A stretch of DNA of 64,000 nucleotides, from assembly GCA_020722965.1 (NCBI GenBank), contig DYJT01000008.1, positions 28,474 through 92,473 on the forward strand, read 5' to 3'. Origin of the DNA: Brachyspira murdochii. GTDB lineage: Bacteria; Spirochaetota; JAAYUW01. The position numbers and the translations under genes were made by a program. The stretch's first letter is position 1. Each line of letters starts with the position of its first letter. The notes beneath the pieces were generated by a model, which saw only the letters and a program-made list of their open reading frames with translations, was not told where the DNA came from and made no database searches. Positions 3,721 through 55,669 of the stretch are shown piece after piece.

Positions 3721-4461
3721 TTGCGATTACTTTTTTTGAACGAAAAATTCAAAAAAGATAACCTTTATTATCTATCTTTAGAAGATAGTAAACATTTAAT
3801 TGCAAATAGATTTTCTATAGGAAATACTATAGATGCTGTTATTGATGATAAATTTGGTAAATTTACCATAAAAACGATCATAAAAAAAATCGTCTATGGT
3901 GAATTTCATCATATATCTTTGATTAAATCTTTTAATTCTAAACTATTTTTGATAATAGGGTTACCAAAAGATAGAGCGTTGATTCCAATTGTAGAGAAAT
4001 CCTCAGAGATTGGAGTAAATCAGATTTATCTTATTCCTTTAAATCATTCAGATAGAAAAAGTTTAAATGAAAACCAACTTTTAAGACTAAAAAAAATAGC
4101 TATAGAGGGATGCAAGCAGTCGGGAAATCCAAATATCCTGAAAATTGTTTATTTTGAATCACTCGAATCTATATTCAAAGATCTATCTTTACTAAATTGC
4201 ATTAAAATTTTTCTTGATGAAGAAGTAGATTTTAATAATAATTTTTTTAATTTAATTAATAAAAATAAAGTTGAAAGATTTAAAAATGTTGTTAATTTAA
4301 TTGGACCAGAAGGAGGACTATCCAGCCAAGAAAAGAGATTACTGATGCAAAATGATTTTTATCCTATAAGTTTAGGTAAGAATATATTACGGACTGAAAC
4401 TGCTGCAATAGTCTCATCTTTTTTAATTAAATCTTATCAAAATATAAATTTTGAAAATTAA
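3721..4461 (+). CDS. rsmE: 16S rRNA (uracil1498-N3) methyltransferase RsmE-like
   Basis: 246 aa. C-terminal SPOUT-type motif NLIGPEGGLSSQEKRLL is typical of RsmE. Apparent TTG start. Confidence 0.7.
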   Translation: MRLLFLNEKFKKDNLYYLSLEDSKHLIANRFSIGNTIDAVIDDKFGKFTIKTIIKKIVYGEFHHISLIKSFNSKLFLIIGLPKDRALIPIVEKSSEIGVNQIYLIPLNHSDRKSLNENQLLRLKKIAIEGCKQSGNPNILKIVYFESLESIFKDLSLLNCIKIFLDEEVDFNNNFFNLINKNKVERFKNVVNLIGPEGGLSSQEKRLLMQNDFYPISLGKNILRTETAAIVSSFLIKSYQNINFEN

Positions 4462-30274: not shown

Positions 30275-30366
30275 CTTATTTCGCGCCTTTTTTGTGCTAC
30301 ATTAATTTTTTTTTAATTTTAAGCAAGAAAAACAGCCTTGACTTAGTATTATATTTTTATTAATTT

Positions 30367-30582
30367 TTGCTAGGGGTACACATGAAAAGAGATTGGGTTT
30401 CAATGAATATAATGGAAATTCTTACAATTCATCCAAAAGCGGCAGAAATTCTTGCAAAATATAATGTAGGTTGTCTAGGTTGTTTTGCAGCCAGTGCCGA
30501 AAGTCTTTCTCAAGGTTTATATGCTCATGGTATAGATCCACAAATAGTCGCCAGAGAATTAGACGAAACATTTAATGGATAA
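30367..30582 (+). CDS. DUF1858 small redox-disulfide protein (hybrid-cluster-protein-associated type)
   Basis: 71 aa. CLGCF motif within ...ILAKYNVGCLGCFAASAESLSQG.... Confidence 0.6.
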   Translation: MLGVHMKRDWVSMNIMEILTIHPKAAEILAKYNVGCLGCFAASAESLSQGLYAHGIDPQIVARELDETFNG

Positions 30583-36541: not shown

Positions 36542-36617
36542 TAGACATCCTCCATTAATTACTTTCTTACTAAAAATTTACCATTTATGTTTATTTATGC
36601 AATATAAAAGTAATTAA

Positions 36618-36720
36618 ATTTACATGTATATTAATTTTACATAGTATATTATTTTTACATAGTATATTTTTTTTACATAGTATATCATTTATACCTTTTG
36701 GATTTTTTACATCATATTTA
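36618..36720. repeat. Tandem direct repeats (3 perfect 18-bp units TACATAGTATATnnTTTT, plus 2 degenerate flanking copies) in the lgt/hsp20 divergent intergenic region
   Basis: TACATAGTATAT begins at 36638, 36656 and 36674, an exact 18-bp period. Variant copies are TACATGTATAT at 36622 and TACATCATAT at 36708. Confidence 0.75.
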
Positions 36721-36865
36721 ATTTATATCTAACAACGCCTTCTTCTTGCATTATTCGCAAAATATTTACCCTATTTTGATATCTTTAATTTTGATAATTT
36801 TTTGATATTTTTTGGCATAATAATTGCATTGTTACATATGAAGAAACAAAAATTAGGAGGAAAAT

Positions 36866-43603: not shown

Positions 43604-45056
43604 ATGTCTTTAAATCATCTACTTCGTATTTTATCTTTTCAAAGATTTGATCAGAAAGCTCATATAATTTTTCTTTTGTATTCAAAGAGTTATCATCCAG
43701 GACATATTCAAGCAGTTGCTTTAATATTTTGCCAACCAATTTTGATGGTTTGATTTCATATCTGTTCATTATATCATGACCATTAATAGCTAAATCAGAT
43801 ACTTTTAATGCATGGTTTTCTTTAATAACCTGTTGAATCTTATCCCAGAAATCTATTAATATTTTTGGATAACCAAAATTTTTCCCATTCCCTATCCTAT
43901 CCGCGACTCTTAATGCAAAAAGCATAGGGATTAAATCTTCTCCAACTCTTGAGATAAATCTTTTAACAGCCCCTTCTGTCCAGGATGTTGTATAATGGAA
44001 CATATGATATTTTACCAATTTAGTAATTGTTTGTATTTCATATTTTGAATATCTATATTCCGTGAGGAAATTTTTTGCTATTTTTTCCGAATGAATTTCA
44101 TGATTGTAAAAAACATTTTCCTTCAAACCTTTTTTTCTACACTCCATTAAAGAAATTGGCTTACCAATATCATGAAAAAGGGCCGCTAACCTTAAAATAA
44201 TATTTTTTGGCGCAGCATCACAACTATAAAGAAGATGATAGTAGACATCATGCAAATGGTATTCATTTTGTTGTTCACCATAACAATCTTTTAATTCTGG
44301 GATCAAAATATCGAGAACAGATGATTGCCTTAAAAGTTCAATACCAAATGAAGGTTTGTCAGAGAGGATCAACCTGTTTAATTCATCCCTAATTCTTTCT
44401 TTAGATATATTATTAAGAAGATGGGAATTCTTCCTTATCTGTTTCATCGTACCTTCATCAATTTCAAACATTAAATTTGATGAAAATCTTAATGCTCTTA
44501 AAATTCTAAGTGCATCCTCTTTGAATCTTAGCTCTGCATCTCCGACAGTTCTAATGATTCTCCTTTGAATATCATCTATTCCGTTAAAATCGTCTATAAA
44601 CTCCTTCGTAAATGGATTAAATGCAAAAGCATTTATCGTGAAATCTCTTCTTGCCAGATCTTGATGTATATTTTGGACATATTGTACTTTTTCTGGATGT
44701 CTTAAATCATAATATTGCTGATCCACTCTAAATGTGGTTATTTCGTATTTATTTTTTAATCCAATAACGGTCACCGTTCCATGTTTAATTCCAGTGGGAA
44801 TAACTTTGCTAAACAATCTTACTATTTGTTCAGGCAGTGCATCTGTAGCAATATCTATATCTATATTGTTAGATTTTCTTTCTAAAATTATATCTCTAAT
44901 ATAGCCACCCACAATATATGTTTTAAATCCTTCATCCTCTATTCGCTTTAATATCGAGAGTAATTCTCTGTTTTCTTCATTGTTTATATTAAGCGCAATC
45001 TTTGCAAAAATATTTTCAATATTTCCTATAAAATCCATTTTTCCCTGATTAATCAA
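43596..45056 (-). CDS. cca: CCA-adding tRNA nucleotidyltransferase / poly(A) polymerase-family protein with a C-terminal HD domain
   Basis: N-terminal Pol-beta nucleotidyltransferase head (GGYIRDIIL...DIDIA) and an HD motif (LFHDIGKP). Confidence 0.8.
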   Translation of the reverse strand: MINQGKMDFIGNIENIFAKIALNINNEENRELLSILKRIEDEGFKTYIVGGYIRDIILERKSNNIDIDIATDALPEQIVRLFSKVIPTGIKHGTVTVIGLKNKYEITTFRVDQQYYDLRHPEKVQYVQNIHQDLARRDFTINAFAFNPFTKEFIDDFNGIDDIQRRIIRTVGDAELRFKEDALRILRALRFSSNLMFEIDEGTMKQIRKNSHLLNNISKERIRDELNRLILSDKPSFGIELLRQSSVLDILIPELKDCYGEQQNEYHLHDVYYHLLYSCDAAPKNIILRLAALFHDIGKPISLMECRKKGLKENVFYNHEIHSEKIAKNFLTEYRYSKYEIQTITKLVKYHMFHYTTSWTEGAVKRFISRVGEDLIPMLFALRVADRIGNGKNFGYPKILIDFWDKIQQVIKENHALKVSDLAINGHDIMNRYEIKPSKLVGKILKQLLEYVLDDNSLNTKEKLYELSDQIFEKIKYEVDDLKTYE

Positions 45057-46943
45057 AATTTAAGCCAAATTAAATTAGTCTTTAAAAAAAAATTGTCAAA
45101 ATTATTATATATTATTAAAAATCAAGAGGTTATTATTCTTCAATATTAATATTACCATATTTGTATTTGTAGAAAGTATTAGTACTAAAAAAAATTTTGG
45201 TAACAAGCAAGAAATTGTGATTGGGGAAAGATTTGATTTTTTAAAGCTATCATTACAAACTGAAAGAAGGAGTTTCAAAAATACAAAAATATCATTAGTT
45301 ATTTTTCGGAATACATCGTAAATTAATTTAAATTTTGTACCTTACAAGATAACTCAATTTAATTCAAAAGAAATTATATTAAGTAGAACTTCATCATATA
45401 AACTTTTTTAAATATTTTTTTCTCTTGATGTTTATATTGATGATTAAAGAAAGATTAAAGAAGAAAAAAGGATATTAAATAACAAGAAAATATAGAAAAG
45501 AGAAAATAGACTAGAACTTCGAGTCAGGAGAAATTAACTTAATTCAAACTTAAGAACTAAAATTCATTATTTAATATTAAGCTGCGTATCAATCCCATTG
45601 AAAGAGATAAAACTAAAAAAAGAGATGATGAGTAAAACCAGAAAAAAAGTCTTTTTCTTCATTTTAATTCCTTTAATTGCAAATCGGAAAATAATTTGTC
45701 ATAAAATAAGCATGAATATCCATAATAAGATAAGGATAATTCATGCCTTTATTTCTTTTATTATAATTAAGGTTGATCCGGTAATAACTCTTGATTTACA
45801 TATACTATGTAATATGTTCCTCAAAGTTGGAAAAATAGTAAAAGAAATAAAGTTAGATGCTACTTTATTAGATTTTTTATTAATAGAAAATCTATTATTG
45901 AATATTAAATTAATATTTTTATAATTTTTATTTTTATTAAAAGGTAAAGACTTATTTTTAATTAAAAAGAATCGAGAATTCAGGCGATAAGAGATAAGAG
46001 ATAAGATTTTATTTGTCTTCAATCTGTTTATTTAAAAAATTTATTTAATTTATGTAAAGTATTTTTTAATTTTATTGAAAAATTTTTTAATTTTTTATTC
46101 TTTTATTAATTACCCATAAAAATGTCTACCACAAAAATTTTTGCATATCTATAATTCTAAAATTATTTAAAATTAAAAAATAGAATTAATCATCTTAAAA
46201 TAATTTTTTGGTAAAATCTTCCCACTAGAAGTTATCTTATTAAATTAGTTAATACTTATAAAAATAATTCCAATAAAAATTCACTAGATAACTTAAAAAA
46301 TTACATCCAGCAGAAATATATAGAGCAAAACGATCAGCAATACCCTCTATGCGGGTAATTCCTATCCAAATAAAAAGGATTATATTATAAACAATAAAAT
46401 GCGAATAATAGTTGTGTAACAATTAAATGTCGTTCTTGTAAATAGCACCATAAAACTGATTAAGACTTAAAGCAAATCAAAAAATGATGGCAAGACGACA
46501 ATATTACCTATATAAAATAGATAAAAATCTGGGACAATTTACTACAAAAGAGAGAAAGGGCAAATAAAATATTTACTTTACTTATGCATATTTGATAGAT
46601 GGATTATTAAAAAATAGGCTAAATAATAGATTATTAAATAATTGATTATTAAATATAAGATAATCCAAGATTGCGTAAAAAATATGACTATAATGAACCA
46701 CGTACAGTTTTACCATGAATAAAAATTTGTTCGCAATTGATTTAATAGAACATTAATAAGATAGCTGTATGAATAACAAATAGCAAAAGACTAAGGCATT
46801 TTTCAACTGAAATAGAAAAAACTTAAAAATAATCCTAGATTATGTTATTTCTTGTAATCTTAAAATCTCTTTTTACTTATTAATTATTAAAAATAGTATA
46901 AAAAAGAATCTGATTAAACTTTTAAAAAAAGGGATCTTTTAAA

Positions 46944-55062: not shown

Positions 55063-55214
55063 AAATCCTCCAAATAGATTTTTTGGAGGGGAGATGCTTC
55101 GTAATGAAAAGATTCTTTTTATATTACTTAAAAAAGCTTAAATAAATAAAATTTCAAAAAATATAAAAGAATCTTCAAACGAGAAGATAACCCTCCCCTA
55201 GCGGATATCTTCTT

Positions 55215-55362
55215 CAATACAGGAAGGTCTCCTGGCTATGGCAACCTCTTTAGCCTTCCCACCATAAAATGGCAGTGGCAAAATTAAAGAGTTTAAACCA
55301 TTACAGTGCCTGGGTGCGCACAGGATTTTCACCTGTTTCCCTTTTATGCTTTCGCTCCTGTA
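55215..55362 (-). ncRNA. Cobalamin (B12) riboswitch
   Basis: The minus strand reads ...AAAAGGGAAACAGGTGAAAATCCTGTGCGCACCCAGGCACTGTAATGG...TTGCCACTGCCATTTTATGGTGGGAAGGCTAAAGAGGTTGCCATAGCCAGGAGACCTTCCTG. This contains the B12 box GCCACTG and the conserved GGTGAAAATCC, GGGAAGGC and AGCCAGGAGACCT elements. The downstream leader has GGGGAGGG and CTCCCCTCC segments that can alternately sequester the GGAGG RBS of the 53896..55062 gene. Confidence 0.8.
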
Positions 55363-55669
55363 TAATAAGCAAAAAAAATTTAAACTTTATTTAAATTTAA
55401 TCAATAGATTTTCAAAAATAGATATAAATTTATTTATAAAAAGGGTAGTTATTTATTTAATAATATTCTTTTATTTATTCTTGTTTTATACACCACACCA
55501 ATTAAACTTTTTATTTATTTGCTTAATAATGTTTTAATCCGCCGGCAATTCAAAAAGTAATATGAAATTTCTATAGTAATTTACTTAATTAATAAGTTTT
55601 TTTCAACTACCAGGACGCCTAAAAGTATTATAAAATATCTATAGTATTATAAAAAATATCTATAATAGT

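Follow-up and report, generated by a model that had tools for sequence, protein, structure and literature searches.

A lineage-specific AT-rich insertion with a candidate gene remnant in the spacer between the divergent genes cca and comM

The 64,000-nucleotide stretch of DNA analysed here (the window) belongs to a MAG of an Exilispira-like spirochaete. In it, cca on the minus strand and comM on the plus strand (start 46944) form a divergent pair around a spacer of 1905 bp (45039-46943) when counted from the cca ATG at 45038, which is the start given by the gene callers, or of 1887 bp if cca is taken as the longest ORF, with its TTG at 45056. This gap is by far the largest of the 54 in the window, for which the median is 24.5 bp and the 90th percentile 128 bp; the second largest measures 607 bp and contains a B12 riboswitch. 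The preliminary description, made from the letters alone, was thus right in pointing to a gap of about 1.9 kb that is far longer than the others. It also called the gap extremely AT-rich, which is correct relative to the genes of the window (21.0% GC vs 28.6%) but not relative to its other intergenic DNA (22.4%). Locally, GC drops to 13% at 45900-46200. The features to which we refer are the following, with the basis of each in brackets:

45039-46943, unstranded: the whole cca–comM spacer (ORF list, gene calls and gap statistics).
45058-45103, unstranded: conserved block 1, AAATTAAATTA…AAAAAAATTGTCAAAATT (alignment of relatives; promoter scan match at 45093-45122).
45104-46845, unstranded: lineage-specific insert of ~1.74 kb, boundaries about ±10 nt (block spacing compared with relatives).
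45079-46116, plus strand: stop-poor frame, a candidate relic of a longer gene (stop count compared with shuffles).
45511-45846, unstranded: in-frame stretch of about 336 nt, or 112 codons, that variants lack (variant alignments).
45598-45924, plus strand: orphan ORF that begins with TTG, spans 108 codons and contains ATG codons at 45625 and 45712 (length and periodicity).
45747-45852, unstranded: inverted repeat inside the ORF, with 18-nt arms that are 94% complementary and a 70-nt interior (repeat scan).
45900-46250, unstranded: extremely AT-rich core of 13-17% GC with decayed short tandem repeats (GC profile and repeat scan).
46251-46845, unstranded: right half of the insert, with an excess of A on the plus strand (neither coding nor RNA nor repeat signals).
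46846-46895, plus strand: conserved block 2, TTGTAATC-N10-TTTTTACTTATTAATTAT (alignment of relatives).

In 12 related loci, the genes around cca and comM are arranged as in the window, and the spacer measures about 120-360 bp in the 10 related loci that hold both genes. None of the 12 related genomes covering the site carries the ~1.74-kb insert. Eight relatives have 21-24 nt between blocks 1 and 2, locus L027 has 98 nt and the window 1759 nt, and this difference in block distance indicates that ~1.74 kb was inserted between two conserved spacer blocks, at a junction that resembles the −35/−10 interval of a promoter. Past block 1, no similarity was seen between the window and the loci of the relatives, and a permissive blastn search with the relatives' spacers against the insert returned AT-rich noise only. 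Among the options raised in the preliminary description was a degraded insertion, and the alignment with related genomes supports it, as the relatives have short spacers, none of them equally long, and the extra DNA lies between conserved blocks.

The same spacer has changed in other relatives as well. L027 carries an 88-nt insert at the same junction, which is unrelated to that of the window, and an insertion common to both was rejected because the two inserts show no similarity. A 46-nt tandem repeat in 4.1 copies is found in the spacer of L012, and short repeats in that of L006. The cca–comM spacer has been enlarged independently among the relatives (L027, L012).

Block 1 adjoins cca and ends in AAATTGTCAAAATT. 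Its minus strand reads TTGACA-16 nt-TAATTT, which is likely the cca promoter, and its plus strand presents TTGTCA, a −35-like hexamer facing comM. The motif AAAWTTGTCAAAA has exactly one occurrence in each of 11 loci, which lies on the plus strand of the cca–comM spacer in every case; these are nine relative loci together with L016 and L017, which are copies of the window's own sequence. In the window, it occurs a single time, at 45089-45101. Block 2 adjoins comM, 91 nt upstream of the gene, and reads TTGTAATC…TTTTTACTTATT. From TGTWAT to TTTTACT, the window measures 18 nt, and so do all nine relatives in which the motif was found; block 2 may represent a −10-like element with a conserved leader. 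In the relatives, 72-314 nt separate block 1 from comM. The blocks are likewise apart in L027, and they may be independent elements and not one promoter. A large divergent regulatory region, also considered in the preliminary description, is retained only for the ~100 nt of conserved blocks at the ends of the spacer and not for the remainder. The two blocks could serve as promoter markers for cca and comM in Exilispira-like genomes.

The insert is not the product of a mis-join, since overlapping JGI contigs and Logan contigs match the window. JGI contigs L016/L031 stop at 45936 and L001 is homologous from about 45855; they overlap at 45855-45936 and jointly span the whole insert, with 99.9-100% identity to the window. 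The two Logan contigs agree with it completely (100% identity), one on either side. An assembly artefact, either a chimeric join or collapsed low-complexity sequence, might be suspected from the four contigs of two other assemblies that end within 45790-46044 (at 45861, 45936, about 45790 and 46044), but with the overlapping coverage and with both conserved spacer blocks flanking the insert in correct order and orientation we consider this extremely improbable. Independent assemblies break in the AT-rich core (45900-46250), and the locus is a concrete case in which 13% GC interrupts short-read assembly at one and the same place in independent data sets.

On the plus strand of the left half, the frame 45079-46116 contains eight stops (seven TAA and one TAG) in 347 codons, a count as low as which was seen in none of 1000 dinucleotide shuffles. 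When the long ORF is left out, stop depletion in the frame has p ≈ 0.009. Recoded stop codons were rejected because seven of the eight in-frame stops are TAA. The period-3 signal of the frame (z = 5.3) comes mainly from 45538-45921, a stop-free core of 128 codons that 0 of 500 shuffles reach (mean 66). Sense-codon usage in the frame is weakly gene-like and close to non-coding (0.002 vs 0.125 ± 0.053 for genes).

The orphan ORF (45598-45924) has a period-3 z of 6.2, which is gene-like and comparable to that of real genes of its length, and its flanks show no such signal. In codon score it reaches 0.092, where genes have 0.21 ± 0.05 and shadow ORFs 0.03 ± 0.12; this value and the order GC1 > GC3 > GC2 favour it over the ORF on the antisense strand. 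No SD-like motif precedes any of its candidate starts, whereas 27 of 53 genes have one, and an AF2 model of the product is of low confidence (pLDDT 56) and uninformative. The inverted repeat inside the ORF has a fold z of −3.2 to −3.9 and no other copy in the window. The earlier statement that the gap holds no credible ORF is too strong in view of a 128-codon stop-free frame beyond 500 shuffles and of the periodicity. The relic of a gene was anticipated in the wrong place: the signal lies on the plus strand of the left half (45079-46116) and not at 46300-46800, where neither a coding nor an RNA signal was found for the decayed gene or structured RNA proposed there.

The core contains decayed tandem repeats such as one of period 21 at 46027-46097. 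The right half (46251-46845) has a period-3 z of 0.5 and a fold z of −2.1; its best frame is not significant against shuffles (p = 0.07-0.25), and it gave no protein homologues and no Rfam match. A minus-strand gene relic in this half, considered for its hydrophobic translations, was rejected as the frame statistics are not significant.

The orphan ORF is identical in three assemblies of the species, and variants of it exist elsewhere. Short direct repeats rich in A (45487-45510 and 45823-45845) border the segment missing from the variants (45511-45846). The first part of L001 matches 45454-45510 at ~80% and continues directly with the sequence from 45823, and protein P0124 (MINSKKVEKRGKEIKLDATLL…), encoded on a 227 kb NCBI contig, has the same junction; two thirds of the orphan ORF are absent from these variants. 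Divergence from the variant is ~20% left of 45855 and ~0.03% (3/8688 nt) right of it. An inversion between the 18-nt repeat arms as the origin of the L001 variant was rejected on reading the sequence. The NCBI contigs with ORF variants measure 93.7 kb (P0123) and 227 kb (P0124), and these other large contigs lack the exact cca or comM proteins of the window.

Searches of 5.8 billion and 1.84 billion proteins with the orphan ORF returned itself and the 38-aa deletion variant P0124. A 231-aa tandem-repeat protein (P0125, 34% identity, exhaustive HMMER) was dismissed as a low-complexity artefact. The other frames of the insert, concatenated, had no protein homologue in these collections either, a six-frame Pfam search of the insert gave no match at E ≤ 1, and PHROGs, NCBIfam and PADLOC yielded nothing credible for all ORFs of at least 35 aa. 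A sub-threshold match to IcmT (E = 0.04) in the family searches was taken as chance. At the DNA level, the insert did not match phages or plasmids, viral contigs gave nothing or chance 19-mers only (three patterns and one protein-guided scan), and a metagenome scan with one 20-mer found nine contigs among the matches listed, all unrelated. The literature on Exilispira contained nothing relevant to the locus.

No signature of a mobile element was found. The ends at ~45104 and ~46845 are not paired by terminal inverted repeats, there is no convincing target duplication at them (only a shared, trivial ATTAT), and no frame has transposase or TnpB coding capacity according to Pfam, PHROGs, NCBIfam, PADLOC and protein searches. 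A second copy of the insert was not found in the 64 kb window, the related loci or the phage, plasmid and viral collections; integrase, phage genes and an att flank, by which a prophage remnant or integrative island would be recognised, were not found at the insert by PHROGs or by phage and viral DNA searches, and the closest tRNA is 20 kb away. A mobile element was rejected as a candidate, since boundary repeats are absent and the 18-nt inverted repeat inside the ORF occurs only once in the window.

By inserting between −35 and −10 sequences, some IS elements and MITEs split or create promoters, and the insert resembles them in its position, with a −35-like block on one side and a −10-like block on the other. 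Elements of the IS200/IS605 type have neither terminal inverted repeats nor target duplications. The insert is like them in this respect and in its size of 1.7 kb, and its stop-poor frame of ~347 codons is roughly TnpB-sized. It differs in having no similarity to transposase or TnpB, no second copy in the searched collections and no identified terminal hairpins. With strain-specific ORFan genes or small genomic islets spread by horizontal transfer, the insert shares lineage restriction, AT-richness, the lack of homologues, a position between conserved syntenic genes and polymorphism within the population, but it has no integrase, tRNA or att site, flanking repeats or mobility gene, and its GC content is not distinct from that of the host's intergenic DNA. 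Alleles that have diverged to ~80% identity directly adjoin nearly identical flanks, and variants of the ORF are found on other large contigs; these hints would fit a small, so far undescribed mobile or exchangeable cassette with a fast-evolving orphan gene, which would target the −35/−10 junction of a shared divergent promoter, rewire comM expression and possibly encode a small membrane-active protein. We regard such a cassette as very unlikely.

A role in replication was also considered. Like a bacterial oriC, the insert is AT-rich, intergenic and situated between divergent genes, and there is a local change of sign in GC skew near 45 kb, which could point to an origin or an AT-rich unwinding element. 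However, DnaA boxes (TTATCCACA-like, one mismatch or fewer) are absent from 45057-46943, in agreement with the preliminary description, which had seen no cluster of them, and the 21 in the whole window equal the number expected by chance (21.8). Neither dnaA nor dnaN adjoins the insert, the sole change in skew across the 64 kb follows gene orientation with the cumulative minimum near 57 kb, A-tract phasing indicative of curved DNA is not significant, and relatives with identical gene order do not have the element. The replication-related element proposed earlier is thus largely refuted, and the probability that we would assign to it is close to nil.

The absence of predicted intrinsic terminators from both strands of the insert, a plus-strand excess of A that resembles transcribed or coding strands and a few local stems (z ≈ −2 to −3.9) would be compatible with a long comM leader or a novel non-coding RNA, transcribed over 1.8 kb from a putative promoter in block 1. 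On the other hand, the covariance models of Rfam 15 matched nothing when the gathering score was applied, and at E ≤ 10 only two eukaryotic matches appeared, which were taken as chance; tRNA and tmRNA scans found nothing in the region. Folding z-scores across the insert average −0.1 with only modest local stems, and no homologous copy that would permit a covariation analysis was found in relatives or in phage, plasmid, viral and metagenome searches. Moreover, the relatives serve comM with the much shorter distance from block 1 given above. An unannotated structured RNA, as suggested at the outset, finds no counterpart in Rfam, and we consider a transcript of this kind quite unlikely.

We favour, as reasonably probable, the explanation that acquired AT-rich DNA, consisting of a decaying orphan gene and junk DNA, lies in the cca–comM control region. 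Anonymous AT-rich DNA of ~1.74 kb has entered the short shared control region in this lineage, between the −35-like block, which stayed by cca, and the −10-like/leader block, which stayed by comM. The left kilobase would be what remains of a protein-coding gene on the plus strand, of unassigned family, in which a 108-codon piece is still open, and non-coding filler would make up the core of 13% GC and the 600 bp on the right. The whole region would be drifting under the AT mutation pressure of the genome and through small deletions. The comM core promoter would have been separated from its former −35/upstream block, likely as a side effect, and the cca promoter would be intact. Probably, the insert has no dedicated function today.

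As may be expected of a pseudogene, a residual frame with stop depletion and periodicity is present at 45079-46116; homology to an intact gene elsewhere was not found in protein and Pfam searches. That the GC content of the insert equals that of other intergenic DNA is in line with acquisition followed by decay. Because no donor or homologous sequence was found, the acquired gene is something that we infer. In an old pseudogene, frameshifts would also be expected, but a single frame is kept over 1 kb, and the codon usage of this frame is only weakly gene-like. The ORF could still be functional, as it is identical in three assemblies, and part of the insert could stem from local repeat expansion and not from acquisition.

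It is unlikely, but deserves consideration, that the insert is a functional lineage-specific cassette in which the ORF at 45598-45924 encodes a small orphan protein (about 100 aa, helical and partly hydrophobic) transcribed from the TTGTCA block, the rest being untranslated or regulatory DNA. Length and periodicity of this ORF beyond chance are what a functional gene would show, and codon-position composition, codon score, identity across assemblies and the promoter-like site at 45093-45122, about 500 nt upstream, point the same way. Against a working gene speak the lack of homologues in two exhaustive searches, the missing SD-like motif, a codon score in the range of shadow ORFs and below nearly all genes, the low-confidence model and the variants, which delete 112 of its codons. 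Slippage or minisatellite growth of an AT-rich spacer in place, followed by decay and involving neither a gene nor an acquisition, would agree with the repeat arrays of L012 and L006, the unrelated insert of L027, the decayed tandem repeats in the core and the intergenic-like GC content. Repeats cover a small part of the 1.74 kb, though, and repeat expansion would not be expected to leave the stop depletion and period-3 signal of the left half, which makes this origin very unlikely indeed.

In reductive or AT-biased genomes such as those of Rickettsia and Mycobacterium leprae, long AT-drifted spacers are remnants of decayed genes, and the dead gene can be recognised from its intact orthologue in a relative. 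The insert is like these spacers in being a long AT-drifted stretch in an otherwise compact genome, with a residual stop-poor frame broken mostly by TAA and a composition that has converged on intergenic DNA. It differs in that searches found no homologue and in that the relatives show an addition and not the decay of an ancestral gene.

Overall, the insert represents ordinary genome flux and is neither a replication origin nor a known RNA. The long empty stretch is a lineage-specific insertion with what is probably a decaying orphan ORF, and it matters little beyond annotation. Should the orphan ORF turn out to be functional, the split promoter would harbour a gene that is young or evolves fast.

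The divergent genes cca and comM are separated by 1887 bp when the longest cca ORF (TTG 45056) is used and by 1905 bp from ATG 45038. The latter is probably the true spacer, given that AGGGA lies upstream of this ATG at a proper distance and that three independent gene calls chose it. The length is a clear outlier because the 54 intergenic gaps of the window have a median of 24.5 bp and a 90th percentile of 128 bp, with a runner-up of only 607 bp, and the large divergent gap of the preliminary description is indeed the biggest of them. Its "extreme" AT-richness holds against genes (28.6% GC; window overall about 28%) but not against other intergenic DNA (22.4%, versus 21.0% in the gap). The spacer is not outlying in composition among non-coding DNA, and GC falls to a minimum of 13% in a core at 45900-46200. 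The NCBI contig CCWSBS010000004.1 (assembly GCA_973316735.1) is 100% identical to the window, and the best named relatives of the ComM protein are Exilispira MAGs.

Features of the cca–comM region
cca: minus strand, divergent from comM; domains PolyA_pol, HD and tRNA_NucTran2_2
45058-45103: block 1, beside cca, conserved across relatives' spacers; AAATTAAATTA…AAAAAAATTGTCAAAATT
about 45104-46845: insert
46846-46895: block 2, beside comM, conserved across relatives' spacers; TTGTAAT[A/C]-N10-12-TTTTTACTTATT
comM: plus strand, divergent from cca; domains ChlI and Mg_chelatase

The 607-bp gap (55063-55669) holds a minus-strand cobalamin riboswitch (55205-55376, 101 bits) upstream of a minus-strand operon, presumably for B12 uptake, which encodes a 388-aa protein without a Pfam match, a TonB_C protein and a TonB-dependent receptor; this gene order is also found in relatives. 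Two divergent gaps, at 36542-36865 (324 nt, 19.8% GC) and 30275-30574 (300 nt, 32% GC), gave no Rfam match at gathering score.

Exact-protein look-ups, together with a single scan of species-representative genomes, yielded twelve related loci, whose ComM is 54-73% identical to that of the window. The longer ones share its gene order (ackA, pgm, cca, then divergent comM, groES, glgB and a TonB-receptor operon). Alignment to related genomes, as proposed in the preliminary description, revealed no equally long spacer; it measures about 120-360 bp wherever one contig holds both genes. The block 1 motif AAAWTTGTCAAAA occurs exactly once per locus in the nine related loci that have it, always in the cca–comM spacer and on the comM strand (17-21 kb where fully fetched); the 64-kb window has a single copy, which lies at 45089-45101 with 35 nt between it and cca.

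On the minus strand, block 1 reads TTGACA-16 nt-TAATTT and is suitably spaced from the start of cca, from which we infer a cca promoter; its plus strand has TTGTCA. The heptamer TTGTCAA (45093-45099), conserved at orthologous sites in the related loci L003-L014 and L027, is a −35-like hexamer both ways (TTGTCA toward comM, TTGACA toward cca), and the arrangement suggests back-to-back divergent promoters with one common −35 region. In eight relatives block 2 starts 21-24 nt past block 1, in a −35/−10-like geometry. The window keeps block 2, 91 nt upstream of comM and with its internal 18-nt spacing, but its distance to block 1 is 1759 nt; about 1.74 kb of DNA has therefore been inserted at the block junction. 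Beyond block 1, this DNA resembles none of the related loci and no other part of the window. Locus L027 carries an unrelated 88-nt insert (1299-1386) at the exact same junction, L012 (1-188) a 46-nt tandem array of at least 4.1 copies that lies between cca and block 1 and runs off the contig end, and L006 (about 3990-4060) short TATATTTT-type repeats in the orthologous spacer; the spacer has grown independently in these relatives.

Four contigs of the same organism from two independent short-read assemblies (L001, L002, L016/L031 and L032) all have an end in one stretch of about 250 bp (45790-46044), a reproducible breakpoint in the insert's 13-18% GC core. The JGI cca-side contig stops at 45936 and the comM-side contig starts at about 45790 but is truly homologous only from about 45855, while one Logan contig ends at 45861 and the other begins at 46044. 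The two JGI contigs together cover the whole spacer with an overlap at 45855-45936, and every one of these contigs matches the window at 99.9-100% identity, so the join is real. Contig breaks are expected in low-complexity DNA of 13% GC, and an assembly artefact is extremely improbable.

The left part of the insert retains a reading frame. The frame of ORF 45598-45924 runs for 128 codons without a stop (45538-45921), a length reached in 0 of 500 shuffles (mean 66), and its period-3 Fourier power (z = 6.2) is in proportion to that of 1-kb controls (cca, 9.8; comM, 11.8); the flanks and right half gave no signal (z between 0 and 0.7). The wider frame 45079-46116 has 8 stops (7 TAA, 1 TAG) in 347 codons, against 20.6 ± 2.5 in dinucleotide shuffles (minimum 13 in 1000 trials), and the depletion remains significant once the long ORF is removed (p ≈ 0.009). 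Counting against a healthy gene are the codon score (0.092 per codon, where genes have 0.21 ± 0.05 and shadow ORFs 0.03 ± 0.12; 0.002 for the wider frame with stops left out versus 0.125 ± 0.053 for genes), the lack of an SD-like motif before any candidate ORF start, a low-confidence AlphaFold model (pLDDT 56) and the lack of homologues: among 5.8 billion clustered proteins, and among 1.84 billion representatives scanned exhaustively with HMMER, only the ORF itself and one variant matched. The earlier statement that there is no credible ORF is too strong. The right half (46251-46845), where the preliminary description saw possible relics of a decayed gene, shows neither a significant frame (p = 0.07-0.25) nor periodicity or homologues.

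The locus is variable. The first 56 nt of the JGI contig L001 match 45454-45510 at about 80% identity and then jump to 45823, with about 81% identity to 45854 and differences at 3 of 8688 positions from 45855 onward. Compared with the window, about 336 nt (112 codons, in frame) are missing from this variant, bounded by two short A-rich direct repeats, and it is open at the position of the window's TAG 45493. The database protein P0124 (38 aa, MINSKKVEKRGKEIKLDATLL…; 227,063-bp NCBI contig) shares this junction but combines substitutions in a third way, so at least three haplotypes exist, two without two thirds of the 108-codon ORF. Another call of the orphan ORF, P0123 (70 aa, identical), lies on a 93,737-bp NCBI contig. 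The window's exact cca and comM proteins are not recorded on contigs of these two sizes; the two large contigs may therefore end in the insert, come from diverged strains or hold the sequence in another context.

We consider it reasonably probable that anonymous DNA was inserted into the cca–comM control region in one lineage, leaving a coding remnant in the left kilobase and non-coding filler elsewhere. The remnant would be a plus-strand coding sequence, unassigned to a family, since truncated by TAA mutations and deletions, and the filler would have drifted to the genome's intergenic composition. The "degraded insertion" among the earlier options fits best, given the short spacer in relatives and the residual stop-poor frame. 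The main rival, in which the 108-codon ORF would remain a working orphan gene, draws on the same frame and periodicity and is unlikely in view of its codon scores and truncated haplotypes. A small mobile cassette aimed at the promoter junction, with a fast-evolving orphan gene, is rather improbable. The insert has no boundary inverted repeats, no similarity to phage or plasmid DNA and no copy in IMG/VR. Pfam (six frames, E ≤ 1) gave no match, and PHROG, NCBIfam and PADLOC no credible match for any insert ORF.

A long leader or novel RNA is improbable. Among the stems only an 18-nt inverted repeat (45747-45764 / 45835-45852; fold z −3.2 to −3.9) stands out, and it has no further copy in the window; over 100 sliding windows the mean fold z was −0.1 and Rfam found no family in the insert even at E ≤ 10, which disfavors the structured RNA suggested earlier. 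Neither a tRNA or tmRNA nor an intrinsic terminator was predicted in the insert, and promoter-like sites were fewer than in shuffles. Growth by local repeats alone, as the array of L012 and the short repeats of L006 might bring to mind, is quite improbable. The insert has no long direct repeats. The AT-rich core notwithstanding, a replication origin is very remote: the insert has no DnaA box (as noted previously, none cluster here), the window-wide count equals chance, and A-tract phasing is not significant.

The region does not qualify as an oriC, a member of an Rfam family, a prophage remnant or an IS/transposon: it has no transposase and no transposon ends, and no second copy turned up in the window, the related loci or phage, plasmid and viral collections. 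It resembles the long spacers with decayed genes of AT-biased genomes as well as small orphan islets that are specific to a strain, and is a fresh instance of an already known kind of thing. For the organism, spacing and conservation indicate that the insertion likely parted the comM −10/leader block from its former −35/upstream block and left the cca promoter intact.
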